Positions 40,964 to 59,243 of a DNA stretch of 64,000 nucleotides are shown one piece after another. A program made the translations under genes and the position numbers. Source of the stretch: an uncultured bacterium (GTDB lineage Bacteria > Methylomirabilota > Methylomirabilia > Rokubacteriales > DASRDR01); the NCBI GenBank assembly GCA_964416315.1, contig CAYQDR010000006.1, positions 6,540 to 70,539 of the forward strand, read 5' to 3'. The notes beneath the pieces were generated by a model. That model was not told the origin of the DNA and did not search any database. It saw only the letters and a list, made by a program, of their open reading frames with translations. Position 1 is the stretch's first letter. Every line of letters begins with the position of its first letter.

Positions 40964-41515
40964 GAATCAGTCCTTTCCCGACGGCCGGTTACGGCCAGCC
41001 GCCCGAAACATGCAGGCAGGGTACCAGACCCGAGGGGCTCTGTCACGCCGCGCGAGAGGGGGACCGTCCGGCGCAGACCCAGCCGGTCGAGTGCGCTATC
41101 TCGTGCCGGTCACCTCCCGCGTTGGGTTGCGCGAGCGTCCCTGGCGGGCACCACGAAGCCCCGAACGCCGTGGGGAAAGGCTGGGGAAAAAGCGGGCTCT
41201 CCGGAAATCGTGTGGGTTCGACGAGCTGGACTGGCCGACGCTCCACTCGCTGCAGCCCCCGGAGGCCCGAAGGAGGCCGGCGCGGTCCGCTCAGGGCCCC
41301 CGGCCGCATTTTTCGCTTGACAGGATTTTGCATGGGGGGTGTGACCGCGGTCGCGGTGTCGACTGCCAGGCCCGGCCAGCGGCGCGCCTCGGTCCGGTGC
41401 GCCGTGCGTGGCCCGCGCCGACCCGAAAACGATTCCCGCCCTCCCGATCTCCCGTCCTGGGGCCTCCCCGGGCGCCCGAGACTCGCATGGTAGAGTCCGC
41501 GCAAGGAGGTCGCGC

Positions 41516-42874
41516 ATGCACCAGACCACGACTCCCCCGCCATCCCCCGCCCCGGCGGACCTCGACCGGCTCGGCGACGAGATCGCCGCGCTCGCGGCCC
41601 ACCTCGACGCCGCCACCGCGCGGCTGCTGACCCTGCTCCGCGAGTTTGACGCCCGGGGCGGCTGGGCCCAACAGGGCTGCCGCTCCTGCGCCGAGTGGCT
41701 CAGCTGGCGGGCCGGGCTCGACCCCGGGGCGGCGCGGGAGCGGGTGCGGGTGGCCCGGGCGCTGGGCGCCCTGCCGGAGCTCGCCGGGGCCCTGGCCCGG
41801 GGGGAGCTGTCCTACTCGAAGGTCCGCGCCCTGACGCGGGTGGCCACCCCGGAGACGGAAGCGCGCCTCCTGGCCGTGGGGCGGGCGGCGACGGCGGCGC
41901 ACGTGGAGCGCATCGTGCGGGCGTGGCGGCGGGTGGACCGGCTGGCGGAGGCGCAAGAGGCCCAGGCGCGCCACGCGCGGCGGTCGCTCCAGGTGTATCC
42001 AGACGCAGACGGGATGGTGGTCGTGCGGGGACGGCTGGAGCCCGAGGTCGGGGCACTGCTCGTGCGCGCGCTCGAGGCGGGGCGCGAGGCCCTGTACCAG
42101 CAGCGGCGAGCCACGGCGGTACCGGACCAGCCCGAGGCGGACCCGCCGACCCCCGGCCAGCAGCAGGCCGACGCCCTCGCGCTGGTGGCGCAGACGGCGC
42201 TTCAGCACGGCCTCGACCCCGGCCCGGGGTGCGAGCGGTACCAGGTGGTCGTCCACGTAGACGCCGCGGCGCTGGCCGACCCGGCCCAGCCGGGCCCGGC
42301 CGCGCTCGAGGACGGCGTCGGCGTTTCCCCGGAAACGGTCCGCCGCCTGGCCTGTGACGCGACCCGGGTCGTCCTGCGCCACGCGGGAGACGGGGAGGTC
42401 CTCGACGTCGGGCGGCGGACGCGGGCGATCCCGCCGGCGCTCCGCCGGGCCCTCCAGGCCCGGGACCGAGGGTGCCGCTTCCCGGGCTGTGGGGTCCGCC
42501 ACGCGCAGGGCCACCACATCCATCACTGGGCCAACGGCGGCCCGACCCGGCTCGAGAACCTCGCACTCCTCTGCCGGCGCCATCACCGGGCGGTCCACGA
42601 GGAGGGCTACCAGGTCGAACGCGGCGCTGACGGCACCCTCCGCTTCAGCCGGCCGGACGGGCGGCCGATTCCCGAGGTGCCGCGGGCGCCGGCGGTGCCG
42701 CGCGACCCGACCGGCGCGCTGGTCGCGGCCCATCGGGCGCACGGCCTGGTGATCGACGCGCGGACGGGGTGCCCGAGCTGGCTCGGCGAGCGCCTCGACC
42801 TGGACTGGGCGATCGGGGTCCTGCATCCCGCCGCCCAAGCGATCGCGTTCCGACCCGCCGGCCGCTCGCCCTGA
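41516..42874 (+). CDS. HNH endonuclease, DUF222 (13E12-repeat) family
   Basis: DUF222 N-terminal region and C-terminal HNH motif CRFPGCGVRHAQGHHIHHWANGGPTRLENLALLCRRHHRAVH; TAGAGT -10 and GGAGG SD upstream. Confidence 0.8.
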   Translation: MHQTTTPPPSPAPADLDRLGDEIAALAAHLDAATARLLTLLREFDARGGWAQQGCRSCAEWLSWRAGLDPGAARERVRVARALGALPELAGALARGELSYSKVRALTRVATPETEARLLAVGRAATAAHVERIVRAWRRVDRLAEAQEAQARHARRSLQVYPDADGMVVVRGRLEPEVGALLVRALEAGREALYQQRRATAVPDQPEADPPTPGQQQADALALVAQTALQHGLDPGPGCERYQVVVHVDAAALADPAQPGPAALEDGVGVSPETVRRLACDATRVVLRHAGDGEVLDVGRRTRAIPPALRRALQARDRGCRFPGCGVRHAQGHHIHHWANGGPTRLENLALLCRRHHRAVHEEGYQVERGADGTLRFSRPDGRPIPEVPRAPAVPRDPTGALVAAHRAHGLVIDARTGCPSWLGERLDLDWAIGVLHPAAQAIAFRPAGRSP

Positions 42875-43028
42875 GCACCCCGTCTCGGGGACCGCGTCGA
42901 GGGGTTCTCCCCGGCGATGGCCCCTGCCCTGGATGGCGCGTCAGCCGAACGCTTGTCCGGGAGCGCTCGAGGTTCCACCCAGCTCCGACCCTCGCCTCGG
43001 CGGGTCGGAGCAGAACTCGAGTTGCTGC

Positions 43029-43328
43029 TTATCCCACACGATTCCCAGAAGGGCGAAAAAGCGAGGAGACCGATCCACTCCCAGCATCAGGCCCCCTCTG
43101 ATCATAGATCGTTCCAGACCTCATGTTCCAGAAGTCCAGCGAGGGCTCGGAGAGGTTGCGCCGTCCCCGGCCCCCCAGGATGAACCCCTCCAGCTCGTCC
43201 TCATGGAGCCGCGCCACGACCGCGAACGGCTTCCCGCGCTTGGTCAACACGACCCGCTCGCCCCGCCCGACGGCCTCCAGAACCTCGCCGGTCCGGTTCC
43301 TCAGCTCGCGGACCCCGACGAACTTCAT
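43029..43328 (-). CDS. Phd/YefM-family antitoxin-like protein, apparently orphan (no toxin ORF downstream)
   Basis: MKFVGVRELRNRTGEVLEAVGRGERVVLTKRGKPFAVVARLHEDELEGF N-terminus typical of Phd/YefM. Confidence 0.55.
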   Translation of the reverse strand: MKFVGVRELRNRTGEVLEAVGRGERVVLTKRGKPFAVVARLHEDELEGFILGGRGRRNLSEPSLDFWNMRSGTIYDQRGPDAGSGSVSSLFRPSGNRVG

Positions 43329-43336
43329 CGCGTGCC

Positions 43337-43370
43337 CCCCATGTGGCTCCGATTGTATGCGCACATGGGG
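43337..43370 (-). promoter_or_regulatory. inverted repeat CCCCATGTG-N16-CACATGGGG enclosing a TACAAT -10 box upstream of the Phd-like gene (candidate autoregulatory operator/promoter)
   Basis: read directly. Confidence 0.4.
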
Positions 43371-43629
43371 CGCGCAGCCAGCTCCCGGCGGCCCGTCGGA
43401 GCCCGGCTGCCACCGGTCAGCCCGGCGTTCGGGAACCAGAGCCCCTCCACGACGCGATGACGAGTGCCCCTTCACTGCCCTCGTGCGTCTCCTTGCTCGG
43501 CCTAGGCCCCGGTCGGGGTCACGGGGAGACAGACTTCCGGAGGTCGCCGGAAGGGACCGGTGGCTGACCAACGCGGATTGCACTAAGTTGACCACGGCTT
43601 CCCGCGATTCGGGTAGAATTCTCGACAAG

Positions 43630-46629
43630 ATGAGCCACCTCCACCAGGTTCTCGCGGGTAAGGTGGACCAGTGGCGCAAGGGCGGTTACGCGTCCGACTA
43701 CCCCGCCATCGCGGAGATTTTCGAGTGGGCGAGTGACCCGGAGACGGGCGAGCTCAGATTCCTCAGGAGGCCACAGCTCAAGGCCCTGGAGACCTACTGG
43801 TACCTGAGACTCGTCGAGGGCACGCCGCACGTCTTTTCGCTCTACCAGAGGCTCTTTCCAAGCCCCCCGGAACTGCTCGACGCCCTGGGGCTCGGCACCG
43901 CGCAGATCCATCGGCTTGTGGCCGGCCAGCCGCTCGATTCCCTGTGGAAACGCATCAAGACCGACGACCGGTTCGTGCGGGACTTCAGGTTGGAGAGCGT
44001 CCGTGAGACGCTGACGCTGGACTACCCAAGCTACATCCTGGCCCTTGCCATGGGTGCAGGGAAGACCATCCTCATCGGGGCGATCTATGCGGCCGAGTTC
44101 GCGATGGCGCTGGAGTACCCGGACGGGCCCTTCGTCCAGAACGCCCTCGTGTTCGCTCCGGGCAAGACGATCATCGAGTCCCTGCGAGAGTTGGCTGCGA
44201 TCCCCTACGACCGGATCCTGCCTCCACGCCTTTACAAGCCGTTCGCGGCGTCCGTCAAGCTGACCTTTACCCGTGACGGGGAGAAGGACATTCCGGTAGT
44301 CCGGGGCAGCTTGTTCAACGTCGTGGTGACCAACACCGAGAAGATCCGAATCCAGAAGGAGACGATACGGCGGCGCGATCTGGGGGGGCTGCTGGGCGCC
44401 GGCCGCGAGGACGAGGCGCGGGCCGAGGTGGCGAACCTTCGCCTTCAGGCCATCGCGTCGTTGCCACACCTGGCCGTGTTCTCCGACGAGGCGCACCACA
44501 CCTACGGCCAGTCGCTAGAGACCGAGCTGAAGAAGGTCCGGAAGACCGTGGACTACCTGGCGGCCAACACGAAGGTCATCTGCGTCGTCAACACCACGGG
44601 CACGCCCTACTACCGCCGCCAGCCGCTGAAGGACGTCGTGATCTGGTACGGGCTCTCCGAGGGGATCCGGGACAACATCCTCAAGGACGTCTCCGGCAAC
44701 ATCCACGCCTTCGAGTTCGAGGGAAAGACCGACGCCTACGTGAGCCACGTCATCGAGGACTTCTTCCGGGACTACGGTGACGTCCGGCTCCCGAATGGTG
44801 CCCCGGGAAAGCTGGCGATCTATTTCCCGCAGACCGACGACCTGGAAGAGCTGCGTCCGGCCATCGACGCGGCGCTGGTGAGGGTCGGCCAGGCTCCCAC
44901 CGTCTCTCTGCGAAACACCACGGACTCCCCGAAGGAAGAGGTCGAGGCGTTCAACCGCCTGAACGATCCGGCGGTGCCGCACCGCGTGATCCTCCTCGTG
45001 AACAAGGGCACCGAGGGCTGGAACTGCCCGAGCCTCTTCGCGTGCGCGCTGGCCCGGCGACTCCGGAGCAGTAACAACTTCGTCCTCCAGGCCGCGACGC
45101 GATGTCTCCGCCAGGTTCCGGGCAACAAGATGAAGGCCCGCATCTACCTGTCCCGGGAGAACCGTGCGATCCTCGACCGCCAGCTCCAGGAGACGTACGG
45201 GGAAACGATTGCGGATCTCGACCGTACGACCCGGGAGATCGGGTCTGCTCGGCTGGTCCTCCGCAAGCTCGCCCCCCCGCCCATCCGGCTCACGCGTTCG
45301 GTTCGGTCGGTCGTTCCCGCTGCTGCAGGCGCGAGAATGCTGCGCCTGGAGCGACCCGGGACCGATGCGGCCGCGACGGCTCTCACCAAGGCAGTGTTCG
45401 ACATCGCTGCCAGGTCCGGCGTCAGGCGCCTGCTCCAGCAGGTCGGCGAGACGATCCAGATCGACACCGCGCCGGAGATCGTGGATCGCCATGAGGCCGC
45501 CGTCAGTCTGGCCGCGGCATTCCGCCTCGACGTGTGGGCCGTGTATGACGAGCTGGGGAGGCTGTACGCGGCGGCCGACGGAATCCCTGCCGCTCACCTC
45601 GAGGAGCTGGCACGCCAGCTGGCGGAGCAGACCCGACACTACGAGGTCCGCGAGGAGAGCGCCGAGTGGGTGCTGGCCCTCGTCAAACCCCACGGCTTCG
45701 TCAGAGCCACCGACGCCGAGGGACGCGAGGTTTACGCCGCGGACATCACCTATCCGAAAGACCGGGAACGGCTAATGCTCCACGCCAGGACGATCCGGGA
45801 GAACCCGGCCCGCTTCGGGTTCCACTACGACCCGTACAACTTCGACTCCGGGCTGGAGCTGGACTTCTTCCAGCAGGTGCTCGCGGAGCTGAACATCCGC
45901 CCGGCCGAGGTGGAGGACATCTATTTCACCGGCGGTCTCACCGACCCCGCCAAGACCGACCTGTTCGTGGAGTACCTGGGCGAGGACGGGCGCTCGCACC
46001 GCTACACCCCGGACTTCGTGATCCGCAAGCGCCCTCGCCAGGGCGGTCCGCCCGGATCAGGGCGCGTGCTGGTCGTGGAACTGAAGGACGATCGGTTCGA
46101 GGCTCAGACCTGCGAGGACGAGGGCCGGTTCGAGCGAGGGGAGCCGCCGTTGACCAACGAGGGCCGGAAGGCGATTGCCCTGAGAGGGCTCGAGCGCCTG
46201 AATCCCGACCGGCTGCGCTACGAGCTGATCTTTGCGAAGAGCGGGGTAACCTACGACCAGCTGGACGAGGTGCGGCGGTTCGTCCGAGAGCCCGAGGGCA
46301 TCTACGCGCACGACCTGGACGTCGCCCGAAAGCTCAAGGACTTGGTCCTTCGGGTTGACGGGAAGCGCATCCGGAAGATCATCCTGTTCGGCTCCCGGGC
46401 CCGCGGTGACGCGCGCCCCGACAGTGACTATGACCTGCTCGTCGTATTGCGCGACATCCCGCCGGACGAAAAGCGATCGTATCGACTGGCTCTCTACGAC
46501 GCGCTTCAGGGCACAGGCGCGGAGCCCTGGGTCATGGGCGAAGAGGAGTTCGAGGAGACCAAGAGCGTCATCGGTGGCCTGGCTCACCCAGCCTGGACCG
46601 AAGGGGTGCTTCTCTACGAGGACTCCTGA
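43630..46629 (+). CDS. Type III restriction Res-like protein: SF2 DEAH helicase + PD-(D/E)xK nuclease with C-terminal minimal nucleotidyltransferase (MNT) domain
   Basis: motif I LALAMGAGKT, motif II FSDEAHH, motif III TGTP, nuclease YTPDFVI...VLVVELKDD, MNT ILFGSRARGDARPDSDYDLLVV. Confidence 0.8.
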   Translation: MSHLHQVLAGKVDQWRKGGYASDYPAIAEIFEWASDPETGELRFLRRPQLKALETYWYLRLVEGTPHVFSLYQRLFPSPPELLDALGLGTAQIHRLVAGQPLDSLWKRIKTDDRFVRDFRLESVRETLTLDYPSYILALAMGAGKTILIGAIYAAEFAMALEYPDGPFVQNALVFAPGKTIIESLRELAAIPYDRILPPRLYKPFAASVKLTFTRDGEKDIPVVRGSLFNVVVTNTEKIRIQKETIRRRDLGGLLGAGREDEARAEVANLRLQAIASLPHLAVFSDEAHHTYGQSLETELKKVRKTVDYLAANTKVICVVNTTGTPYYRRQPLKDVVIWYGLSEGIRDNILKDVSGNIHAFEFEGKTDAYVSHVIEDFFRDYGDVRLPNGAPGKLAIYFPQTDDLEELRPAIDAALVRVGQAPTVSLRNTTDSPKEEVEAFNRLNDPAVPHRVILLVNKGTEGWNCPSLFACALARRLRSSNNFVLQAATRCLRQVPGNKMKARIYLSRENRAILDRQLQETYGETIADLDRTTREIGSARLVLRKLAPPPIRLTRSVRSVVPAAAGARMLRLERPGTDAAATALTKAVFDIAARSGVRRLLQQVGETIQIDTAPEIVDRHEAAVSLAAAFRLDVWAVYDELGRLYAAADGIPAAHLEELARQLAEQTRHYEVREESAEWVLALVKPHGFVRATDAEGREVYAADITYPKDRERLMLHARTIRENPARFGFHYDPYNFDSGLELDFFQQVLAELNIRPAEVEDIYFTGGLTDPAKTDLFVEYLGEDGRSHRYTPDFVIRKRPRQGGPPGSGRVLVVELKDDRFEAQTCEDEGRFERGEPPLTNEGRKAIALRGLERLNPDRLRYELIFAKSGVTYDQLDEVRRFVREPEGIYAHDLDVARKLKDLVLRVDGKRIRKIILFGSRARGDARPDSDYDLLVVLRDIPPDEKRSYRLALYDALQGTGAEPWVMGEEEFEETKSVIGGLAHPAWTEGVLLYEDS

Positions 46630-46639
46630 GCAGGTCCGA

Positions 46640-47044
46640 TGGGACTGGGTCAAGCTGTGGCTCGCCAAGGCGCGAGAGGATCTGTTTGCAGGCGAGGTGA
46701 TCCTCAACGCATCCATGCCCTCATATGATCTGGTCGGTTTTCATGCCCAGCAGGCGGCGGAGAAAGCATTGAAGGCGCTTCTCATCAGACACCAGGTGAA
46801 GTTCGGAAAGACTCACAATATGACAGAGCTCCTTCAACTCGCCGAGCCGATCGCTCCGGGCATCCGTCAGCAGTTGACCGATGCCACGGCACTCACCCCC
46901 TTCGCCGTGGATGTCCGATATCCCGGCGAGCCGCCCTTGGGCCAGGGCGAGGCGGCCCGCCACCTCGCGGCCGCCCGAAAAGCGCTGGACCATACTGGCG
47001 TGCTCCTGAAACCGTACCTCGACGCGGGCCGGCCCGGCGGGTAG
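46640..47044 (+). CDS. HEPN-domain protein (start unresolved: nearest ATG 46639 is 1 nt out of frame; alternative in-frame GTG 46574)
   Basis: WDWVKLWLAKAREDLFAGEVIL...FHAQQAAEKALKALL...VRYPGEP HEPN-like helices; partner of MNT domain. Confidence 0.55.
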   Translation, partial: WDWVKLWLAKAREDLFAGEVILNASMPSYDLVGFHAQQAAEKALKALLIRHQVKFGKTHNMTELLQLAEPIAPGIRQQLTDATALTPFAVDVRYPGEPPLGQGEAARHLAAARKALDHTGVLLKPYLDAGRPGG

Positions 47045-47058
47045 GATGAGGGTCGAGG

Positions 47059-48999
47059 ATGGCCAAGAGCCGCACTAAGAAAGCGCTGCCGAAGCGGCAG
47101 AAGCCTGTCGCTCGGAAACCGGCACTCACGCCGAGCTTCGCGAAAAAGCAGGAGGTCGCCATCACGGCGGCCAAGGGCCGGCCGATGCTCACGTGGGTCG
47201 GCAAGCGGCCTCTGCGAAATGTCGTCGCCTTCCCCGCCCAGCATGTCGAGACCTACGACCCCTCCGGCGACGCCGCCAAGCGTGGTGGCGACGTTTGGAA
47301 GGACTGGCCGGAAGCCTACCCGCGGGGCGGGCTCCTCTTCCACGGCGACAACAAGGAGGTGCTGGCGCATCTCCTGGCGAACGGCTTCCGAGGCAAGGTC
47401 AACCTGATCTATATCGACCCACCCTTCGACTCCGGTGCCGACTACGTGCGGAAAGTGAGCCTGCGCGGACCGAGGGGGACTGCCAAGCTCGACGGCGAAG
47501 GTTACACGCTCGGGGAACAGCTCCAGTACACCGACATCTGGGCCAACGACAACTACCTCCAGTTCATGTACGAGCGGCTTCTGCTACTGAAAGAGCTCCT
47601 GGCTGATGGTGGCTCCATTTTCCTCCACTGTGACAGTACTAAGGGCCATCATCTCCGCTGTCTAATGGACGAAGTCTTTGGAGCCGAAAAGTTCCTCAAT
47701 GAGATCGTTTGGAGCTATCGGCGGTGGCCGGCGGACACCGACTCATTTCAGTCGATGCACGACACAATTCTCTACTACGTCGTGGAAATCTCCAAGAAGC
47801 GTACCTTCCATCGCATGTATGAAGAAGCATCCGAAAGCTATCTCAGGCGATTCGGCGGCAAGACTCAGAAGCTCGACGAAGAGACCGGGACGCGAAAGAT
47901 CACCCTCGATCAGGAAACGAAAGGCATGCCTTTGCGCGACGTATGGGAGATATCCATAGTCGCCGGCTTCAAAGGGGAGCGGACCCAGTACCCAACCCAA
48001 AAGCCAGAGGAACTTGCCGCAAGAATCATAGAGGCCTGCTCTAACCCTGGGGATGTCGTTCTAGACTCTTTCGTCGGGTCTGGTACCACTGCGGCGGCTG
48101 CGCAGAGGCTAGGGCGCCGCTGGATTGCTTGCGACATCAACAAAGGCGCGATCCAGACCACGAGCAAGCGCCTCCAGACGATCATCGAGGAGCAGATCAA
48201 GCACGCGGCGAAAGGCCGGCAGGGTGCGTTAGCCGACGTCCCGGAGGGAAAAGAAGAGCAGGTCGAGTCCGCGCAACTTACTTTCTCAGTCTACCGGGTC
48301 AACGACTACGACCTGGCGATCCAGCACCAGGAGGCCGTCAACCTCGCCTGCGAGCACATCGGCGTGACGCGGATGCGGACCGACCGCTACTTCGATGGAA
48401 CCCTCGGCAAGAAGCTCGTCAAGGTTGTCCCGTTCTCGCACCCGCTGACGCTGCTGGACCTCGAGGAGCTCAAGCGCGAGCTGGACGCGCGGCCGGGCGA
48501 AGAGCGCGACGTCGTGCTCGTGTGCCTCGGCAAGGAGCCCGCCGCCGACGCCTGGATCGAGGACTGGGACCGCTTCCGAAGAGGCAAGACCGCGGTGAAC
48601 CGGATCGAGGTCATCGAGCTCCGGACAGATCCGAAATATGGCAAGTTCTTCCAGCACCAGCCGGCCAGAGCCAGGGTCAAGGCGGTCCGAAAGAACGACA
48701 CGCTAATGGTCCACATCGAGGACTTCATCTCGCCGAGCATCATTGAGCGTCTCCACAAGCAGGCCGGACTCCTCAAGCCGAAGATCGACGACTGGCGGGC
48801 GATGGTGGACTGCGTGATGCTCGACCTCGACTACGACGGCAAGGTCTTCCGGATCGGCCTCTCCGACGTGCCGGAACGGAAGACCGACCTGGTCGCCGGT
48901 CGCTACGAGATCCCGGCGGTCCGGAACGGCGCGACCGTGGCGGTCAAGATCATCGACATGCTCGGGGAGGAAGTCCTCGTTACCCTTCCCGCGAGTTGA
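47059..48999 (+). CDS. site-specific DNA methyltransferase, beta-class N6A/N4C (Type III Mod-like) with ~250-aa C-terminal extension
   Basis: motif IV IYIDPPFDSG before motif I FVGSGTT; ATG with SD-like GAGGGTCGAGG. Confidence 0.85.
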   Translation: MAKSRTKKALPKRQKPVARKPALTPSFAKKQEVAITAAKGRPMLTWVGKRPLRNVVAFPAQHVETYDPSGDAAKRGGDVWKDWPEAYPRGGLLFHGDNKEVLAHLLANGFRGKVNLIYIDPPFDSGADYVRKVSLRGPRGTAKLDGEGYTLGEQLQYTDIWANDNYLQFMYERLLLLKELLADGGSIFLHCDSTKGHHLRCLMDEVFGAEKFLNEIVWSYRRWPADTDSFQSMHDTILYYVVEISKKRTFHRMYEEASESYLRRFGGKTQKLDEETGTRKITLDQETKGMPLRDVWEISIVAGFKGERTQYPTQKPEELAARIIEACSNPGDVVLDSFVGSGTTAAAAQRLGRRWIACDINKGAIQTTSKRLQTIIEEQIKHAAKGRQGALADVPEGKEEQVESAQLTFSVYRVNDYDLAIQHQEAVNLACEHIGVTRMRTDRYFDGTLGKKLVKVVPFSHPLTLLDLEELKRELDARPGEERDVVLVCLGKEPAADAWIEDWDRFRRGKTAVNRIEVIELRTDPKYGKFFQHQPARARVKAVRKNDTLMVHIEDFISPSIIERLHKQAGLLKPKIDDWRAMVDCVMLDLDYDGKVFRIGLSDVPERKTDLVAGRYEIPAVRNGATVAVKIIDMLGEEVLVTLPAS

Positions 49000-49031
49000 G
49001 CCCGCCCTCGCGGCGGATCGGGCGGCGCCAA

Positions 49032-49307
49032 CTACAAGTCGCCCTTGAGCCAGGCCCGGTAGGCGTCGAACCACTCTGCGCCGACCGGCGGCCGATCCGC
49101 CCATTCGAGGGCGGTGACGCCGACCCGGTAAGTCCGTCCCTTGCGCCGGCAGATGGCCCTGAACGGGCAGGCGACGCGATCCTCAAGCATCACCAGGAAT
49201 GCGCCGTGCTGCCGGTCCGCTCCATAAGCGTCGACGAGGACCTCCCCGATCAGTTGACGGAGGCGGGCTCTGCCCGTCCTGCCTTTCCGGCTCAACTCAG
49301 CGGACAC
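49032..49307 (-). CDS. hypothetical protein (91 aa)
   Basis: ORF overlapping end of upstream 538-aa gene by 16 nt; no family recognised. Confidence 0.45.
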   Translation of the reverse strand: MSAELSRKGRTGRARLRQLIGEVLVDAYGADRQHGAFLVMLEDRVACPFRAICRRKGRTYRVGVTALEWADRPPVGAEWFDAYRAWLKGDL

Positions 49308-50908
49308 CCTTCCGCCTCGAGCTTCCTCCAGATGAGCCGCTTCCTCCCGTGGCGCTGCCGGAGGTGCCGCAGGAGATCCGCCCAGAACCGTGGCTCACCG
49401 ACCAGCCGGGACAGCTCGGCGACGATGGCGCAGTAGTGGGCGGCCGGCGCCGCGCGTGACGGCCTGCCGGAGTCGAGATGCAGATCCACGAGTCGCTGGT
49501 ACATGGCGGCGGCGAGGCGCGCGTACTCGGCGCGGCTAGCGGTCCCGGGTCGCTCGAGGATGAGGCGAAGCCAGTCGTACGGTTCCTCCCGGTCGCGTCC
49601 CAGCCGGCGTTGAAGCTCCCTAAGCTTCGGGAACGCGGTGAGGTCCGCTCCGTCCGAGGCTTTGGCAACGGCGTACTTGGCCACGAGTTTCAGCTCGTCG
49701 AAGCCCATCCGACCCTGCCGGCCGGCGATCCCGTCGAAGACCTCGCGCTCCCGGCCCTCGGCCAGGAGAATGCGTGTCTTGAGCCCCGTCACGTGCCACG
49801 CCCCTTCTCCGGGCCGAGTCGCCGTCCGCAGCAGCCGCGCCAATACCGCGTCCCAGTTGGAGAGGGCCTCCGACTGCCGCCTCAGCGCCGCGAAGGCTGC
49901 GGCGTCGGGCTCCCTGAGAAACTGTGCGACCCGGGCCTCCTGGGCCGCCGACCGGTCCCCGAGGGCCTCCCGGGCCCGGATGAGGGCCGTGGCGAACTTC
50001 CCGTGGTGGCCGAACGTCCTGACCCCCACCTCAGCCAGCCTGGCCACCCCGGCCCAGTCCATCTTCCGCTCGTACTGGGAGAGCACCTCCTCCAGGTACA
50101 CGGCGTTCCGGGGCGCGAAGCGCTCCTTTAGGGCCAGGACCTCGGCCCGGTTGCGTCCGACCGTGGCCAGGGCGATGAGGCCGTCCACCTCGGTGGGACA
50201 GTCCGGCCGATCGGTCCTCAGGGCGCCCTCCGCTGCTGCGGTCAGCCGCATCTTGAGCCGCTCGCGGCCGTCCGCGTCCAAAGCCCTGGCCAATCCGGTG
50301 AAGCCCCCCCGGTATCCGAACTTCTTCGCGAGCGGCAGGATCTCGGTAATGACCCCCTCCACACCTCCGCGGCACGCCACCAGGCTCCGGGTGTAGCCCT
50401 CGACCACCCGGGCGAAGTCCAGGGCGATGGCGTCCTCCGGGGCTCCGTGATTGCCGAGAATGTCCGTCGTCTCCCCGGCCTCGGCCAGAAGCCCCAGTAG
50501 CAGGGCATAGGCTCTGACCGCTGCTGCGTGTTGCCCTGATCGGGTGAGCTCCAGCGCCCGGCTCATGAAGTCGGTGAAGAGCTCGACCCACTCTCCGAAC
50601 GCCTCCGACTCGTCCCCCTCGTCGCCCGGGTCAGACCACTCATCCTCAGGGATCCAGGAGACGAAGGCGCCCGAACGGGATTGCGCGCAAAAGTCTTCGA
50701 TTTCCTCGAGGAGCGCCCCCGGCCGGGAGCGTGAAGTCGAGCCCTTCGACCCGCGCGGCAGGTGCTCGCGGACCCACCGCGTCTGTCGGTGGGACGGCAG
50801 ATTGGCGATCTGCTCGGCCAGCAGCTCGGCGAGCTTCGCTTCGCCGAGGCGCGCCAGGTCGGCCTTCCGAACCGCCGCTCGACCGGGGCCGACCCTCCTT
50901 CGTGGCAT
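49292..50908 (-). CDS. hypothetical alpha-helical protein (538 aa), unknown function
   Basis: GAGAGGG SD before ATG 50908; GC3-rich; acidic stretch WSDPGDEGDESE; no family recognised. Confidence 0.55.
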   Translation of the reverse strand: MPRRRVGPGRAAVRKADLARLGEAKLAELLAEQIANLPSHRQTRWVREHLPRGSKGSTSRSRPGALLEEIEDFCAQSRSGAFVSWIPEDEWSDPGDEGDESEAFGEWVELFTDFMSRALELTRSGQHAAAVRAYALLLGLLAEAGETTDILGNHGAPEDAIALDFARVVEGYTRSLVACRGGVEGVITEILPLAKKFGYRGGFTGLARALDADGRERLKMRLTAAAEGALRTDRPDCPTEVDGLIALATVGRNRAEVLALKERFAPRNAVYLEEVLSQYERKMDWAGVARLAEVGVRTFGHHGKFATALIRAREALGDRSAAQEARVAQFLREPDAAAFAALRRQSEALSNWDAVLARLLRTATRPGEGAWHVTGLKTRILLAEGREREVFDGIAGRQGRMGFDELKLVAKYAVAKASDGADLTAFPKLRELQRRLGRDREEPYDWLRLILERPGTASRAEYARLAAAMYQRLVDLHLDSGRPSRAAPAAHYCAIVAELSRLVGEPRFWADLLRHLRQRHGRKRLIWRKLEAEGCPLS

Positions 50909-50922
50909 CCCGGCCCTCTCGC

Positions 50923-51602
<680 letters not shown>

Positions 51603-51606
<4 letters not shown>

Positions 51607-53090
51607 CGGCGCGCGAACACGGCGGCCCCGGTCCCGGCGAGCTGGCCGAACGTGGCCCCCGCCATGAGCCCGGCGCCTCCGGGGTAGTTGTAGTAGAACA
51701 GGCCGCCGACCAGCTCCCCGGCGGCATAGAGACCGGGGACGGGGCGATCCTCCGTGTCCAGGACGGCGGCGTCCGCGTTCACCCGGAGGCCCCCGAACGT
51801 GAACGTGATCCCGCACGTGACACCGTAGGCGACGTAGGGCGGGCTGTCGAGCCGCTGGGCCCAGTTCGACTTGGGCGGCGTGATCCCCCGGGTGCCCTTG
51901 CCGTCCAGGACCGACGGATCGAAGGGCTTGTCCTCGACGGCGAGGTTGAACTCCCGGACCGTCCGGACGAGACCGGCCACGTCGACCTCGCAGCGTCGCG
52001 CCAGCTCCTCGATCGTGCCGGCCTCGACCTTCGTGACCCGGCGGATCCGGTACTCTTCGCGCAGGAGCGGGACGACCTTCTGGTCGAAGATCTGCCAGCC
52101 CGCGCGGCCCGGCTGCTTGAGGACCTCGCGGCCGTATCTCGCGTACGTGTAGTTCCGGTAGTCGGCGCCCTCGTCCACGAAGCGCTCCCCGCGGAGGTTC
52201 ACCACGATCCCGAGGGGGTAGGAGTGCTTCTGGAAGAGGTCGAGCACCGTCCGATCGCCGAACTCCGGCGCGTTGAGGTCCCACTGGACGGCGTGGCACG
52301 ACGACCAGTGCCCGTAGGGCTGGGCGCCGATCTCCAGCGCCATGCGGATCCCGTCCCCGGTGTTGTGTCGCGTCCCGCGGACGCGGGCCAGCTCCCAGTC
52401 GGGCCCGAGGTAGCGGGTGCGCCACTCCGGGTTCGCCTCGAACCCGCCGCAGGCGAGGACGACCGCCCGCGCGGCGATCTCCTCGAACTCCTCGGGCCCG
52501 CGGGCGACGACACCCGTCACGGCGCCGCGCCGATCCACGAGCAGCCGGCGCGCGCCGGTCCCGTAGCGCACTTCGACGCCGACGCGGGCCGCGCGGTCGT
52601 AGAGGGCCTGGACGAGCCCGGCCCCACCCCCCACTGCCTCGACCGCCAGCCCACCCCAGAACCGGTGGCGCTCGCCGACTCTGAACGACTGGCGGCTCAG
52701 CATCAGGATCCAGCGCACCCCCTGACTCCGCATCCAGACCACCGTCGCCCGCGAGCGTCGGACCAGGAGGTCGGCGAGGTCCGGGTTGGCGCAGGCGTCG
52801 GTGAGCCGCATCAGGTCGTCGTAGAACGCCTCCTCGGGGTACGGCGGCACCTCGGCGGCCAGCGCTTCGGCTTCGGTGAGGTCGGGCAGGACGTCACGGC
52901 GGAGGTCCTCGAGCCCCCGGTGGGCGAACCGGAAGGCTCCCGCGGTGAACAGCGAGTTCCCCCCGCGCTCGACCTCGGCCGCCTTCTCGAGGACGAGGAC
53001 GCGCGCTCCCTGCTCGCGCGCCGCGAGCGCCGCGCACAGCGCCGCATTCCCACCCCCCACGACAATGACGTCGTACGCGCGATCCGTCAT
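51603..53090 (-). CDS. FAD-binding oxidoreductase (fumarate reductase/succinate dehydrogenase flavoprotein-like, TcuA-like)
   Basis: YDVIVVGGGNAALCAALAA dinucleotide fold, C-terminal LYAAGE motif. Confidence 0.8.
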
Positions 53091-53168
53091 GGCACGCTAA
53101 GTCGCGGCCGCCACGGGTGGCGCCGGGTGAGCCGCAGAGCGCCGCGCGGAGTGGGACCCCTTTAGCTT

Positions 53169-53196
53169 CCTCCCGCGATTCGGCGAATCGCGGGAG
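53169..53196. repeat. perfect 14-bp-arm palindrome CCTCCCGCGATTCG-G-CGAATCGCGGGAGG
   Basis: read directly in intergenic gap between permease and FAD oxidoreductase genes. Confidence 0.5.
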
Positions 53197-53268
53197 GAGG
53201 TAAACGGGTGACGGAGCGCGGCGCGGCTGTCGGCGAGCCCGGCGACAGGACCCGTGGCGGCCATGGCT

Positions 53269-54462
53269 CTACGCGCCGCGGCGGATCGCCTCGGCCGGCG
53301 GCAGCCGGAGGATCCGCGTCGTCGCGTAGGTCCCCGCGATCACGCCCAGCGCCGCCGCGAAGGCCACGGCGAAGGCGAGGAGGCGCCCGGTGAAGAGGAA
53401 GAGCTGCTGCCCCGCCTGGGCCGCCCGTGCGTCCACGGCCACCCCGGCGCCGAGCGCGAGGAGCGTGCCGAGGACACCCCCCGACAGGCTCACGACGAGG
53501 CTCTCGCGCAGGACCTCCCCGAGGAGCTGGACGTCCGTCGCGCCGAGGGCCTGCTTGATCCCGAAGTCGCGGAGCCGCTCGAACATGGACGCCGCCATCG
53601 TGTTGGAGAGCGACAACCCGCCCACCAGGAGCCCGATGCCCCCGACGCCGGCGAGGAGCCAGGTGAAGAAGACAGTGGAGGCGGCGAGCCGGCGCGCGAC
53701 CTCGCCGGGCGGGGCCACGTTCACCCCCGGCACCTCGCGCCGGATCCGCGCGGCGAGGGCGTCCGCGTCCACGCCGGGCGCCCACCCCACCGCGGCGCCC
53801 GTGTTCAGGTCCTCGCGCGCCACCGGACCGCCCGGCGCGAAGAGGAACCGGACAGTCGGGTCCAGGGCGAGCCAGAGGTCGCGCGCGTCCTCGAGGGGGA
53901 CGATCGCGAAGCGATCCGGGGCCGTGAGCAGGCGCTCGAGGATGCCCACGACCTCGAGCTCCCGATCGCCGACGCGGAGCCGGTCGCCGGGGCGGAGGCC
54001 GCGGGCCGCAGCGAAGTCCGCGCCCACGACGGCGCGGCCCCGATCGGCCGGGGCCAGGAACCGGCCGCGGGCGACCGGCAGCGTCGGGTAGTTCCGGTTC
54101 GGCGTCGGCACCGTCAGATCCACCCCCAGCACGAGCTCCTGGTTGATGCTGAACAGCTCGGAGGTCGCGGGATCGACCGGCACCATGACCTGCGCCTGGA
54201 CGACGCGAACGCCGGGGACCGCCCGGATCGCCTCGAGGGTGCGCCGGGGGAGGAGCCCGCCCGCGGTGAAGCCGGCGCCGCTCCCGATCCCCGCGCCCGC
54301 GACCGAGATCTGGCCAAGCACGAACCGGTGGCCGCCCTCGATGAAGCGGCTGATCCGCTCGGCGAGCGCCCCGAGCGCGACGAGACCGGCCATCCCGACG
54401 GCGATGCCCGTGATGGCGAACAGGTAGCCACGGGGCCACAGGCGTCGGGGAAGAGCCGGCAT
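53269..54462 (-). CDS. ABC transporter permease, FtsX/MacB-like
   Basis: N-terminal TM, large periplasmic domain, C-terminal 3-TM FtsX-like region; start ATG 54462 (SD too close) vs 54540 uncertain. Confidence 0.7.
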   Translation of the reverse strand: MPALPRRLWPRGYLFAITGIAVGMAGLVALGALAERISRFIEGGHRFVLGQISVAGAGIGSGAGFTAGGLLPRRTLEAIRAVPGVRVVQAQVMVPVDPATSELFSINQELVLGVDLTVPTPNRNYPTLPVARGRFLAPADRGRAVVGADFAAARGLRPGDRLRVGDRELEVVGILERLLTAPDRFAIVPLEDARDLWLALDPTVRFLFAPGGPVAREDLNTGAAVGWAPGVDADALAARIRREVPGVNVAPPGEVARRLAASTVFFTWLLAGVGGIGLLVGGLSLSNTMAASMFERLRDFGIKQALGATDVQLLGEVLRESLVVSLSGGVLGTLLALGAGVAVDARAAQAGQQLFLFTGRLLAFAVAFAAALGVIAGTYATTRILRLPPAEAIRRGA

Positions 54463-54598
54463 CCCTCCGGTGCTACGCGTCGGCGCGTCGGGCCGTCGGC
54501 ATCGGCCCCCGACCGCCTCCCACGTCCGGCGGGAATCCATCCCTGGTCCCGGCGGGGTGAGGCACGAGCGCGGCTAGGACGCAGGGAGGAGGAGGGCC

Positions 54599-54624
54599 GA
54601 GGCGTATGCCGCATACGTTGAGGC
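54599..54624. repeat. second copy of 26-bp palindromic motif GAGGCGTATGCCGCATACGTTGAGGC
   Basis: identical to 34209-34234. Confidence 0.6.
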
Positions 54625-54678
54625 CCGCCGACGACCGAGGACGACGCCGGGCGACGCGCATCGCCCCGCCGGAGCGGT

Positions 54679-55962
54679 TCACCACGTCAGGCGGGATTCC
54701 ACCGGCAGGCCGCGCCGCCGCCGGGCGCGCCGGGTGATCCGGGTGACCAGGAACACCAGCGCGAGGCGCGCCCGGAGCCAGAGCGGCCGGCGCAGGAACG
54801 CGGCGCCCGCGAGGACCGCCACCACGGCGTCCCGGAGGACCCGGGGCGGGCTCGGGGAGAGGAACACCTCGAGGAACGACGGGTCGTAGTAGCGGTCGAT
54901 GAAGTCGAAGAACAGCCGCGCCCCACCGGCAATCCGCCGCCGGTACCGGTCGAAGCGGGCGGCGCGGAAGTCGCCGCGGCGGAACCCCTCGACGACGACC
55001 CGCGAGGCCAGCTCGGCGGACTGCATCGCGATGTAGACGCCGGTCGAGAAGATCGGATCCACGAACGTCACCGCGTCCCCGATCGCCACGAAGCGGTCGC
55101 CGATCGCGGGCACGGTTCGGTACGAGAAGTTCGCCGCCGTCCACACCCCCGTCGTCCGGGTCGCCCGCGCGAGCCCCGCCCGGACGCTCGGACAGGCCGC
55201 GATCATCTCGTCGAAGAGGCGCTCGACGGGGACCTGGCGGGCCTTGACGACGCGCTGGTGCAGGACGCAGCCGATGCTGGCGAGGTCCCCCGCGAAGGGG
55301 ATCCACCAGAACCAGCCGTGCTCGAACAGGTAAATCCGGATGTGCCCCTCGAGCCGCCCCTCCCAGCGCTCCGCCCCGCGAAAATGGGCGAACAGGGCGA
55401 CCTTCCCCAGGCTCGGCATCGGCTCGCGCCGCCCGAGCCGGGTGGCGGTGAGGGCGTCCCGGCCGCTCGCGTCCACGAGGAACGCCGCCTCGACCCGGTA
55501 GGAGCCGGCATCGTCGGTCCGGACGTCGAGCCGCACGCGATCGGCTTCAACGGCGACCTCGGCCACCTCCGCCCCCTCGAAGACCGCCGCCCCCTGCTTC
55601 ATCGCGTGATCGAGGAGCAGCCGGTCGAAGTCGGCGCGCGGCACGTTGTAGGAGTGGTCGGCCATGGCCACGCGCGCCTGGAAGTTGAAGACCACCTGCC
55701 GGCCCTCGATCTCGTCGATGAACGCGGCGCCGTGCTTGCGGATGAAGCCTGCCGCCTCGAGGGCCGGCAGGAGGCCGAGGCGCTCGAAGAGGGGGACGTT
55801 GGCGGGCAGGAGCGACTCGCCGATGTGGAAGCGCGGGAAGCGCTCCCGCTCGAAGCACGCGACGTCGAGCCCGGCCCGCGCGAGGAGGGTCGCCGCCGTC
55901 GCGCCGGCCGGTCCGCCCCCGACCACGGCGACGTCGTACCGGCTCCGGATGCGGTCGGCCAT
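54679..55962 (-). CDS. FAD-dependent oxidoreductase, flavin halogenase / geranylgeranyl-reductase-like
   Basis: YDVAVVGGGPAGATAA, later GDAVTFVDPIFSTG FAD-binding motifs. Confidence 0.8.
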   Translation of the reverse strand: MADRIRSRYDVAVVGGGPAGATAATLLARAGLDVACFERERFPRFHIGESLLPANVPLFERLGLLPALEAAGFIRKHGAAFIDEIEGRQVVFNFQARVAMADHSYNVPRADFDRLLLDHAMKQGAAVFEGAEVAEVAVEADRVRLDVRTDDAGSYRVEAAFLVDASGRDALTATRLGRREPMPSLGKVALFAHFRGAERWEGRLEGHIRIYLFEHGWFWWIPFAGDLASIGCVLHQRVVKARQVPVERLFDEMIAACPSVRAGLARATRTTGVWTAANFSYRTVPAIGDRFVAIGDAVTFVDPIFSTGVYIAMQSAELASRVVVEGFRRGDFRAARFDRYRRRIAGGARLFFDFIDRYYDPSFLEVFLSPSPPRVLRDAVVAVLAGAAFLRRPLWLRARLALVFLVTRITRRARRRRGLPVESRLTW

Positions 55963-55973
55963 CCCGTCCCCCC

Positions 55974-56720
55974 CTACGACTCGCCGGCCGCGGCCGGGAC
56001 CCGACGGCGGCCGAGCCCATCCGCCGCGAGCCGGTGGCCGGCCTCGCGCCACAGCTCCCGGGCGAGATACCAGGCGATGCGGCCGCCGTCGGCCAGCGCG
56101 CGGAACCGGCTCGCCCGCTCCAGCGGGTAGATCCGGCGGATCGGCACCGAGACGAGCCCGAATCCCGCCCGGACGCCGCGCACCAGCGCCTCGGTCTCGA
56201 GCACGAACCCTTCCTCGCGGAGGGAGACGGCCCGCAGGAGCGCCGCCGGGTAGATGCGAAAGCCGCACTGCGTGTCGCGAACGTCGGCGCGGACGAGCCG
56301 CGTCACGAGCCAGTCGGCGGCGCGGATCGCCCCTCGGCGGAGCGAGGGCACGCGGTCGCCGTCCCCCGAAGCCAGCCGATCGCCGACCACGAGGGCCTCC
56401 GGGGCCGCCCGGGCCGCGGCGAGGAGGCCGGGCAGATCCGTCGGGTCGTGCTGGCCGTCGCCGTCGAGGGTCGCGACCGCGGTCGCGTTCCGCCGGAGCG
56501 CCTCGGCAAAGCCCCGGCGGAGGGCGGCGCCCTTGCCGGCGCGGCGCGGGCTGCGGAGCACGCAGGCCGCCCCGGCCGCCGCGGCGCGGACATCGCTCCC
56601 GTCGGTCGAGGCGTCGTCCACGACGATCACCGGGCAGACCTCGCGGAGCCGGCGGACGACGGCGCCCACGGTGGCCGCCTCGTTGAAGACCGGCACGACC
56701 GCGACCAGGCTGCTCATCAT
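55974..56720 (-). CDS. glycosyltransferase family 2
   Basis: VVPVFNE...VVDDASTDGS...DGDGQHDP GT-A motifs; ATGA overlap with upstream gene. Confidence 0.8.
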   Translation of the reverse strand: MMSSLVAVVPVFNEAATVGAVVRRLREVCPVIVVDDASTDGSDVRAAAAGAACVLRSPRRAGKGAALRRGFAEALRRNATAVATLDGDGQHDPTDLPGLLAAARAAPEALVVGDRLASGDGDRVPSLRRGAIRAADWLVTRLVRADVRDTQCGFRIYPAALLRAVSLREEGFVLETEALVRGVRAGFGLVSVPIRRIYPLERASRFRALADGGRIAWYLARELWREAGHRLAADGLGRRRVPAAAGES

Positions 56721-57979
56721 GCCGCGGCGCGCTCGCGCCGCGCCGCGCCGGCGCGCTCGAGGAGCAGGGCGACGTGACCGCCGCCCCGCGCGAGGCCGTG
56801 GACGAGCACGGTCTGGGCGGAGCGTGACCCGGCCCCGCCGTTCGTCGCGAAGGCGAAGCCCCCCCGCACCGGCGTCCGGAGGTCGGGGAGCGGTGGGAGC
56901 CGCCCGCCGCCGAGCGTCGCGACCGCCGCACCCGCCACGGCGAGCACCCCGAGGCCGGCGTGGTCGCCGGCGAGCGGCGTCAGCGCGGTGAGCCGGGGCC
57001 CGGACGCACCCGGCGTCCCGAAGACCACCCCGATCAGGTCCAGCTCGCACACGTCTTGGGTCGGGTCCCCGCTCCCCGTGAGGTAGACGGCGTCCACCTC
57101 CGCCGGCTCGCGGCCGGCTCCCGCGAGGGCGCGGCGGATCACGGCCGGCGCGCGGCGGCGCCGCGTCGGGAACCCGTGGGCCGGCGCCGGCAGGTTGCCC
57201 CAGGCCACGCCCGTGAGGTCCGCGTAGACGCGCGCGCCGCGCGCCCGCGCGCTGTCCTCGGTCTCGAGCAGCACGGTCGTGGCGCCCTCGCCGAGCACCG
57301 TGCCGTTGGCGCGTCGGTCGAACGGCCAGCACCCCTCGGGCCCCGCCCCGCGCGGCGACGTCGTCCCGAGCCGCGTCAGCTCGCGGAAGACGATCGGGCA
57401 CAGCTCGTCCACGCCGCCGGCGAGGACCGCCGGGGCCCGCCCCGCCGCGACGAGGCCGGCCGCGCGAGCCACGGCCAGCTCGCCCGCGATCCCCGCCTGG
57501 TTCACCGTCAGCATGGGCCCGCGCGCCCCCAGGTTGATCGCCGCGAGCGCGGCCATCGCGTTCATGACCGTGTTCGGGAAGATCATCGGCGAGAGCCCCA
57601 GCGGGCCGCGGGCGAGGTAGCCCCGCGCGAACTCCTCCGACGACCGGAAGTCGCCCCACTGGGAGCCCAGGACGAGCCCGAGCCCCGGCAGCGCGCCGGC
57701 CTCGACGCCCGCGTCGGCCATCGCCAGTCGGCACGCGACCACGGCGAGCTGGCACACCCGGGAGAGCCGCCGCACCTCCTCCGGGGTCAGGTAGGGCGTG
57801 AGATCCCCGACCTCGGCGCCCAGGTGGCTCCGGAGGCCCGCAGTCGGGAAGGCCCGGATCGGCCCGATGGCGGGCGTCCGCGCCAGGGCCTCCACCACGT
57901 CGGCGCCAACGCCGACGCCGAGCGCGCTGACGGTGCCGACACCGGTCACGAACACCCGATGCCTCGGCTCAGGCGGCAC
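56717..57979 (-). CDS. beta-ketoacyl synthase-like protein lacking the active-site Cys (chain-length-factor-like)
   Basis: KAS fold (RVFVTGVGTVS...) but active-site region reads TVNQAGIAGE instead of ACSSG. Confidence 0.65.
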   Translation of the reverse strand: MPPEPRHRVFVTGVGTVSALGVGVGADVVEALARTPAIGPIRAFPTAGLRSHLGAEVGDLTPYLTPEEVRRLSRVCQLAVVACRLAMADAGVEAGALPGLGLVLGSQWGDFRSSEEFARGYLARGPLGLSPMIFPNTVMNAMAALAAINLGARGPMLTVNQAGIAGELAVARAAGLVAAGRAPAVLAGGVDELCPIVFRELTRLGTTSPRGAGPEGCWPFDRRANGTVLGEGATTVLLETEDSARARGARVYADLTGVAWGNLPAPAHGFPTRRRRAPAVIRRALAGAGREPAEVDAVYLTGSGDPTQDVCELDLIGVVFGTPGASGPRLTALTPLAGDHAGLGVLAVAGAAVATLGGGRLPPLPDLRTPVRGGFAFATNGGAGSRSAQTVLVHGLARGGGHVALLLERAGAARRERAAA

Positions 57980-59192: not shown

Positions 59193-59243
59193 TCGAGACC
59201 CCCCGCACCCCCGTCCCCTCCCACCCTTCGGGGGGAGGGGGGG
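59188..59243. repeat. G-rich 5'-UTR element copy 1 (GTCATTCGAGACCCCCCGCACCCCCGYCCCCTCCCACCCTTCGGGGGGAGGGG); contains the KAS start codon context
   Basis: tandem copy at 59277-59330, third partial at 59388-59406. Confidence 0.65.

Follow-up and report, generated by a model that had tools for sequence, protein, structure and literature searches.

Overlapping genes for a DUF6880-like helical protein and a CcbP-fold protein in a Rokubacteriales contig: a possible cassette of mobile and defence islands

Two overlapping genes, coding for proteins of 538 and 91 amino acids (aa), are situated in a 64,000-nucleotide (nt) stretch of contig CAYQDR010000006.1 (assembly GCA_964416315.1) from an uncultured bacterium of the order Rokubacteriales; this whole stretch is called the window below, and related loci and proteins are cited by their L and P numbers. 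We tentatively regard the two genes as one conserved cassette, which moves among mobile and defence islands, codes for a non-catalytic scaffold and its adaptor and is partly decayed here. The chances of this explanation are, in our opinion, a little below even, and its rivals are all less well supported. The identity of the proteins is given with moderate confidence and the mechanism with low confidence.

According to the proposed mechanism, the large, DUF6880-like solenoid and the small CcbP-fold adaptor would be co-translated in a fixed proportion, and their predicted complex, having no catalytic activity of its own, would recruit or regulate a partner that processes nucleic acids, in the setting of host–mobile-element conflicts. 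The best candidates for such a partner are superfamily 2 (SF2) helicase-nucleases. A preliminary description of the locus, in which the pair was proposed as a new defence or export-accessory pair beside a Type III restriction-modification (R-M) island, is partly supported by the present data.

The two genes and the families of their products

Both open reading frames (ORFs) are real genes at the positions listed in Table 1. Chance long ORFs appear on every strand in sequence of 70% GC, and the reality of these two follows from their independent calls on the same contig in the JGI, ENA and Logan assemblies, from 35 homolog clusters of the large protein (43–68% identity, full length) and 51 of the small one, from a ratio of non-synonymous to synonymous substitution rates (dN/dS) of 0.27–0.31 for the large gene against its orthologs and from a confident model of the large protein. 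The sizes, common direction, 16-nt overlap and 14-nt distance from the ABC ATPase gene, as first described, agree with the ORF listing and the sequence.

The overlap has the geometry expected of translational coupling, which had also been proposed. The alternative TTG start of the small gene, chosen in one public gene call (L003), is preceded at about 11 nt by a Shine-Dalgarno-like GGAAGGG motif with better spacing, and gives a 4-nt overlap (TTGA); overlaps of 4 nt are found in orthologs as well (L005-8, L043). Since the 14-nt spacer is too short for a promoter, the large gene is presumably co-transcribed with the upstream operon; scans for promoters and terminators found nothing and are uninformative at such a GC content.

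The AlphaFold2 (AF2) model of the large protein (pLDDT 84, pTM 0.70) is an all-alpha, TPR-like solenoid of approximately 28 helices, so the earlier description of a mostly helical protein with an acidic patch holds. The acidic stretch WSDPGDEGDESE occupies residues 91–102, in a low-confidence disordered loop of this model, and the isoelectric point (pI) of the whole protein is 9.2. In a 19-residue Kyte-Doolittle scan, hydropathy peaks at 1.27 in the large protein and at 1.07 in the small one. By this measure no membrane segment was found in either protein, and there is no signal peptide or periplasmic adaptor domain; the model of the large protein is soluble and helical throughout. No recognisable catalytic or effector domain was found in either of them.

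The large protein matched nothing in Pfam (E ≤ 1), NCBIfam, PADLOC or PHROGs, and a sequence search of PDB returned noise only. Foldseek comparison of its model with PDB and BFVD gave generic TPR solenoids only, with TM-scores of 0.1–0.25; the matches to IFIT5, OGT and IFT-A are of this generic kind and were discarded.

The relationship became visible by comparison of profiles, namely A2 for the large-protein family, A5 for 41 distant relatives and A6, an alignment of seven SWIM-DUF6880 proteins of plasmid and metagenome origin. Searching 1.84 billion representatives with A2 gave 144 relatives, among them full-length proteins of 515–590 aa (E 1e-22 to 1e-4), proteins of ~220 aa consisting of the N-terminal domain only and two proteins of 700–730 aa with an N-terminal CxC...CxH SWIM-like motif. 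A search with A5 reached protein P0234 at E 1e-22 and otherwise gained little; in Pfam, P0234 scores 23.4 bits for SWIM and 58.3 bits for DUF6880. In hhalign, A2 and A5 were aligned with a probability of 100% (E 3e-41), A5 and A6 with 99.6% (E 1.4e-23), and A2 and A6 directly with 92.6% (E 4.6e-7, 417 columns). The signal appears only with the DUF6880 alignment, as A2 against the single sequence of P0234 gave 1.5% only.

Because the A2–A6 alignment (A2 24–547 against A6 112–572) covers the entire helical body, including a shared C-terminal motif, the large protein is, on the strength of these profiles, a remote relative within the DUF6880 (PF21810) superfamily, homologous to it over the full length but without SWIM. 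The gathering score of PF21810 (27.3 bits) is not reached by the 538-aa protein; the PF21810 hidden Markov model (HMM) is matched by P0234 and by one distant relative within A5. Members of DUF6880 are usually labelled 'DUF6880 family protein' or 'SWIM zinc finger family protein' (for example, Burkholderia WP_335340498.1 and Streptomyces WP_104860758.1), and nothing relevant on this family was found in the literature.

Common to the large protein and DUF6880 are the C-terminal motif (Y..LV...L..G..SRA..AA.Y..IV.E.S.L ... LR..HGRKR) and a similar size after the SWIM domain; DUF6880 members also occur on plasmids, near transposases and integrases, and one of them stands beside a CcbP gene. The main difference is the N-terminal SWIM zinc finger (CxC...CxH), which the large protein lacks: the residues C78, C80, C89 and H91, invariant in A6, have no counterpart among its cysteines (positions 74, 179, 237, 493 and 535), and the A2–A6 alignment begins past the SWIM region. 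The large-protein subfamily differs, in its turn, by a highly conserved ETTDILGNHGAPED loop and by the acidic disordered loop. Thus, a rare helical family, unrecognised by HMM libraries, is now tied to DUF6880/SWIM proteins.

The small protein scores 19.7 bits against PF11535 (Calci_bind_CcbP; cut-off 21.5), over the N-terminal 40 profile positions only, and its orthologs score 17.7 and 21.6 bits. Some homologs are labelled 'calcium-binding protein' by NCBI. The AlphaFold model (pLDDT 87) of a full-length ortholog, P0038 (117 aa), consists of a helical hairpin, a four-stranded SH3-like barrel and a C-terminal helix, and its best PDB matches are those of Anabaena CcbP (3urg, TM-score 0.71; 2p0p, 0.64), followed by Tudor and SH3 domains. 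Judging from this model, the small protein is predicted to represent a divergent, basic branch of the CcbP-fold (PF11535-like) family. The earlier statement that neither protein matches a known family is therefore to be replaced: a remote homology search by Foldseek gave generic TPR folds for the large protein, and hhalign linked it to DUF6880, while for the small one a CcbP fold was obtained through its ortholog, together with a borderline PF11535 match.

With CcbP (Alr1010) of Anabaena sp. PCC 7120 (PF11535; PDB 3URG, 2P0P, 2K2V), the full-length ortholog shares the fold, as modelled, and the small protein the N-terminal 'VDAY.E.E' motif region, and in some loci a bona fide PF11535 protein fills the partner position. 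The small protein differs in being basic instead of strongly acidic, in scoring at or under the Pfam cut-off, in its non-cyanobacterial origin with no link to heterocyst development and, in the window copy, in the loss of 23 barrel residues. No relevant literature on PF11535 was found.

The size usual in this family is 100–120 aa, and the 91-aa protein of the window is a deletion derivative. The missing 23 residues, 'LVVGEEVEVRGFDWDGTPQGIVA', are present in every homolog inspected in protein alignments, and their in-frame loss is seen in the window copy only. Intact relatives carry a GGC microhomology at both deletion ends. When placed on the ortholog model, the deletion takes away strand b2 of the barrel together with most of b1 and b3. 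As the small-gene sequence is identical in three assemblies (L001-L003), an error of assembly is excluded. As a pair, the genes have probably ceased to function in this genome, because the small gene has lost its barrel core and sister genomes do not have it; purifying selection still acts on the large gene. With its small member broken, the window copy holds little promise as a working new defence system.

Genomic distribution, islands and helicase neighbours

The large-protein family is rare, being found in 5 of 185,579 species genomes (Tectomicrobia, Methylomirabilia, Rokubacteria, Hakubella and one unclassified metagenome-assembled genome, MAG) and in 25 metagenome loci. It was not found on viral contigs by scanning or on plasmids by tblastn. 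Directly downstream of the large gene, a CcbP-fold gene is located in most of the informative loci (the window, L004/L013, L005-8, L012, L014/L043, L018, L019, L033, L034-36, L041-42, L009 and L029/L032).

In L009, the partner is a bona fide CcbP (PF11535, 137.9 bits; E 1e-24 to Alr1010). Here, as in L029 and L032, a conserved 124-aa ORF stands between the large gene and the PF11535 gene; it is also seen in L040, where the contig then ends, and may be a third component of this variant of the cassette. In Hakubella (L016), a UPF0158 gene stands in the position of the CcbP-fold partner, and the occurrence of another one upstream of the large gene in L009 suggests that UPF0158, on which nothing relevant was found in the literature, is part of the same neighbourhood network. 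Two other downstream ORFs were rejected as partners: that of 117 aa in L010 forms the end part of a longer ORF, which has PD-(D/E)xK-like matches, and the 120-aa gene of L045 is not CcbP-like.

The neighbourhoods of the cassette vary between loci, yet they are always variable islands. Neighbour sets at individual loci include an ISL3 transposase with PIN/RHH genes; DUF3800, DUF4143 and NERD-UvrD; Fic, Mrr and DUF790 with XPB; a serine recombinase, a reverse transcriptase and MazE-PIN; MmeI-like methyltransferases; and an integron-type integrase with DUF790 and XPB. In L024, the large gene is followed by a PLD-SNF2 helicase, and DEAD/SNF2 genes lie beside the family elsewhere. Such recurrent placement in defence islands is further seen from R-M, HEPN/MNT, BrnTA and HicAB genes, DUF4143 ATPases, integrases and transposases among the neighbours. 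In three loci (L012, L043 and L033), the large and small genes are joined by convergent DUF790 and XPB-type helicase genes. Between these blocks, DUF790 is 76–78% and XPB 81–82% identical while the genomic settings differ, and the four genes appear to travel as a unit.

An older association is suggested by more distant relatives. Next to the gene of the remote SWIM-DUF6880 protein P0234 (L052/L053), a convergent PF11535 gene lies 9 nt from its stop. An overlapping operon on the Haloarcula sinaiiensis plasmid pHsi204 contains an MrfA-type Zn-binding (MZB) fragment, a SWIM gene, a weak PRiA4_ORF3-like gene and a CcbP gene. Its flanks carry ISH3/IS5 transposases, and a DUF790 gene is situated ~2 kb off. 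The 259-aa protein between SWIM and CcbP was considered as DUF6880-like and rejected, since it is PRiA4_ORF3-like. On a Cupriavidus plasmid, CcbP is downstream of a SWIM-SNF2 helicase. In Haloferax volcanii and Natrinema, CcbP is immediately upstream of an XPB-like helicase gene, next to which DUF790 is found in H. volcanii; these helicases, like the DUF790 protein of Haloferax, are orthologs of those adjoining the bacterial cassettes (30–37% identity). Other plasmid CcbP genes stand beside transposases, integrases and HNH or PD-(D/E)xK nucleases.

The pairing of SWIM/DUF6880 with CcbP thus recurs across large distances, as follows from the P0234, haloarchaeal and Cupriavidus arrangements. It may be regarded as old, since CcbP genes are found next to a remote relative of the SWIM-DUF6880 type and next to SWIM operons of haloarchaea, often beside XPB-Bax1. 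In the searchable literature, this association with helicases is not described; nothing linking XPB-Bax1 to CcbP or DUF6880 was found, and nothing relevant to the cassette in publications on SWIM and defence.

Two known systems are to be compared here. The XPB-Bax1 (DUF790) pair, distributed in archaea and some bacteria, has an accepted role in DNA repair. It is a recurrent immediate neighbour of the cassette (L012, L043, L033) and of haloarchaeal plasmid CcbP genes, but it is a neighbour and not a homolog, and it is absent from the window. The SWIM domain itself was reportedly first described by Makarova, Aravind and Koonin in 2002. According to PMC5512222, mobile systems commonly contain SNF2 ATPases associated with SWIM. 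Systems combining SWIM with SWI2/SNF2 resemble the present one in that relatives of the large protein carry SWIM, CcbP genes adjoin a SWIM-SNF2 helicase, the large family adjoins PLD-SNF2 and DEAD/SNF2 genes and all these contexts are mobile or conflict-related. They differ in that the window proteins contain neither a SWIM nor a helicase domain, and no helicase gene belongs to the conserved core.

A wider proposal, which we consider rather doubtful, is that (SWIM-)DUF6880 solenoids and CcbP-fold proteins form an unrecognised ancient partnership of bacteria and archaea serving SF2 helicase-nucleases (XPB-Bax1, SWIM-SNF2 and PLD-SNF2) in host–mobile-element conflicts. The CcbP family would then be mainly an adaptor in nucleic-acid conflicts and not a Ca2+ buffer, and the window would hold a SWIM-less, partly decayed example. 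If confirmed by statistics and by biochemistry, this association would give the first functional handle on two uncharacterised families and would suggest new accessory factors for XPB-Bax1-type machines. In our opinion, this cross-domain association is the part most worth pursuing, the interest of the locus itself being modest.

Weighing the explanations

Several observations weigh against the scaffold–adaptor cassette and its helicase connection. With no effector domain and no match of the large protein to PADLOC, PHROGs, viral contigs or plasmids, the role in conflicts comes from the neighbourhood only, and physical contact between the large and small proteins is inferred. The direct link of A2 to DUF6880 is moderate (92.6%) and partly transitive through A5. 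Approximately one-third of the informative loci of the large family have no CcbP-fold partner (L010, L015, L016, L020, L024, L031, L044 and L045), and many plasmid DUF6880 genes stand without a CcbP gene beside them. Helicases and nucleases abound in defence islands in any case, so that the association with such enzymes may be background, and the haloarchaeal cases are not mutually independent. Finally, in four related genomes the large gene is under purifying selection without its partner and always directly follows the ABC ATPase gene, which is compatible with a partner-independent, possibly domesticated role.

Among the rivals, the best surviving one, unlikely as it is, treats the genes as an autonomous two-gene anti-phage or anti-plasmid defence system, in which the solenoid would sense the invader and the small protein would be the effector or trigger. 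Defence-island-type neighbourhoods in many unrelated contexts, a rare and patchy distribution resembling that produced by horizontal gene transfer, faster evolution than that of the flanks and tight coupling agree with it. Of the earlier proposal of a new defence pair, this recurrence in defence and mobilome islands across lineages stands. In contrast, no nuclease, NADase, protease, pore or nucleotide cyclase is recognisable and PADLOC-DB contains no family matching either protein at E ≤ 1, so the pair is not a recognisable stand-alone defence system. Moreover, the window lineage keeps the large gene with the small one missing or crippled, and in L034-36 and L041-42 the reverse is seen, the large gene being truncated and the small one intact. 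Such decay of one gene with survival of the other is not what a strict two-component system would be expected to show. A toxin–antitoxin reading of the pair was rejected, as there is no toxin-like domain and the sizes and order of the genes are unsuitable.

The history of the locus in related genomes bears on two further explanations. The order FtsX permease, FAD enzyme, ABC ATPase and large gene is common to the window, L010/L011, L015 and L026, where the flanking proteins are 78–85% identical (the ABC ATPase 78–80% in L010, L015 and L026) and the large protein is 63–65% identical. The dN/dS of the large gene is 0.31 against 0.14–0.19 for the flanks, and the GC content at third codon positions (GC3) is 0.86 in the large gene and 0.83 in the small one against 0.92–0.96 in the flanks. 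Going by GC3, the cassette here, at the 3' end of the ABC/lipid operon, would have been acquired long ago and ameliorated in part since then.

Downstream, the related genomes diverge. The large gene is directly followed by a CDP-alcohol phosphatidyltransferase gene in L015 and by BrnT/BrnA with a PD-(D/E)xK-like Res fragment in L010; in L031 it abuts a Mod fragment and MNT. In the window it is followed by the crippled small gene and then by a low-GC island with Type III Mod, HEPN, a Res-MNT fusion, a Phd-type antitoxin and HNH (DUF222). This island (43.1–49.0 kb; GC 0.60–0.68 against 0.72–0.77 elsewhere) is an insertion that separates the cassette from the CDP-alcohol phosphatidyltransferase gene; it is missing in L015 and is different in L010. 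Since the downstream contents differ among related genomes, the cassette is an old resident at the operon end, beside an insertion hot spot, and the R-M island arrived later. Type III R-M accompanies the family in this lineage only (the window and L031), and the suggested co-occurrence with such systems reduces to insertion into the hot spot. L010, L015 and L031 retain the large gene but not the small one, which has repeatedly been lost or damaged in this lineage. Absence of the pair from relatives with unchanged flanks, named earlier as evidence against the proposal, is therefore seen in L010 and L015 for the small gene and not for the large one.

A reading of the two genes as dead remnants of an old insertion, without a present function, is quite unlikely. 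The fold-breaking 69-nt deletion, the missing small gene of the sister genomes, the intermediate GC3 and a frameshift-like break near residue 509 of the L015 large gene point in this direction. That break may equally reflect a frameshift pseudogene or a fault of assembly, however, and the full-length large ORF of the window aligns end to end with orthologs of 63–68% identity at a dN/dS of ~0.3, not ~1.

A cytoplasmic accessory of the upstream MacB/LolD-type ABC exporter/lipid cluster, that is, a domesticated scaffold with a dispensable small gene, is the only rival with lineage-specific support, and we consider it very unlikely. The conserved gene order, the tiny junctions (14 nt here and a 4-nt overlap of the ABC ATPase and large genes in L010) and the retention of an intact large gene at a dN/dS of ~0.3, even without the small gene, speak for it. 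Against it, exporters of this kind were seen beside the large family in the four syntenic Rokubacteria-type loci only. They are lacking in L004, L009, L012, L016, L017, L043, L044 and L045, and L005 has merely unrelated oligopeptide-type ABC ATPases ~7 kb away. The absence of membrane segments and signal peptides, the lower GC3 and the lower identity of the large protein in comparison with the operon proteins also disagree with an export function, homology points to SWIM/DUF6880 mobilome proteins, and the position at the operon end beside a hot spot has the look of a hitch-hiking insertion. The adjacency to the exporter, like that to the Type III R-M island, is positional and not functional, and the proposal of an export accessory is not upheld.

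The poorest chances belong to a Ca2+-responsive signalling module with the small protein as a regulator like Anabaena CcbP: the CcbP fold, the borderline PF11535 match in the N-terminal helical hairpin, the NCBI names of orthologs and an acidic residue aligned (by eye) with CcbP Asp38 agree with it, but it is highly improbable given a family pI of 6.1–10.1 (10.0 in the window) against 4.25 for Anabaena CcbP, a window copy without most of the barrel, contexts of mobile elements and nucleic-acid enzymes instead of ion homeostasis and a 'calcium-binding' name transferred from the Pfam family. CcbP has two Ca2+ sites and requires Asp38 for its function (PMC10574481). Its strongly acidic character (34 D+E among 124 residues) is not found in the neutral to basic small-protein family, whose role as a Ca2+ buffer is therefore doubtful. 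The NCBI label 'calcium-binding protein' for CcbP-family genes looks doubtful outside cyanobacteria.

Features of the locus and neighbouring genes

Table 1. Positions of the features discussed (window coordinates unless a locus is named)
Feature	Position	Strand	Remarks
Large gene, 538 aa	49292..50908	-	ATG start; ORF listing
Small gene, 91 aa	49032..49307	-	GTG start; ORF listing; 87 aa if TTG at 49295
Overlap of large and small genes	49292..49307	-	16 nt with GTG start; 4 nt (TTGA, 49292-49295) with TTG start
Deletion junction of small gene, in-frame 69 nt	49155..49160	-	Codons R50-A51, agGGCc; DNA alignment with four orthologs
Spacer from ABC ATPase stop to large-gene ATG, 14 nt	50909..50922	-	GAGAGG Shine-Dalgarno-like motif inside
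ABC_tran ATPase gene, 227 aa	50923..51606	-	PF00005; last conserved gene of ketoacyl-synthase/GT2/FAD/FtsX lipid-export cluster
Type III Mod methyltransferase gene	47059..48999	+	N6_N4_Mtase; convergent with small gene, 32-nt spacer; first gene of low-GC island
Type III Res (ResIII helicase region), 999 aa, with overlapping HEPN gene	43630-47044	+	Res with C-terminal MNT nucleotidyltransferase domain, residues ~910-997
Insertion hot spot, cassette to CDP-alcohol phosphatidyltransferase/LPG-synthase genes	~41500-49000; L010:9600-10700; L015:7594-7892		
Break in L015 large-gene ortholog	L015:7509-7514		Rokubacteria MAG CAVPSB010000034.1; two tblastn segments near residue 509
Block of large gene, small gene and convergent DUF790 and XPB-type helicase genes	L012:5974-10557; L043:8001-11869; L033:3-3418		
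Conserved ~124-aa ORF ('VIEFHKVWVAQCEAAREIRAR...') after large gene	L009:9695-10069; L029:856-1293; L032:769-1206; L040:648-1019		No Pfam match
UPF0158 (PF03682) genes flanking large gene	L016:5061-5558; L009:7497-7979 (upstream)		
Haloarcula sinaiiensis pHsi204 overlapping operon	L055:3580-5932		MZB fragment, SWIM, weak PRiA4_ORF3-like, CcbP

The cluster upstream of the cassette (window 51603-64000, minus strand; L001:1-9986) contains four ketoacyl-synthase-like genes, an acyl carrier protein, a GT2 glycosyltransferase, a halogenase-like FAD enzyme, a MacB-type FtsX permease, a second FAD enzyme and the ABC ATPase. This cluster, also conserved in L010 and L015, probably serves lipid or polyketide-like biosynthesis and export. 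A mechanical ORF at 50923-52425 (minus strand) stretches the ATPase to 500 aa from an upstream GTG into the FAD-enzyme gene; it is an artefact of stop-poor, GC-rich sequence, the public calls giving 227 aa with a start at ~51606.

In the low-GC island, a HEPN gene overlaps the end of res and sits between res and mod. By this arrangement, a HEPN/MNT toxin–antitoxin pair would in effect be fused into the Type III R-M operon. The same MNT end is found beside the Mod fragment in L031.

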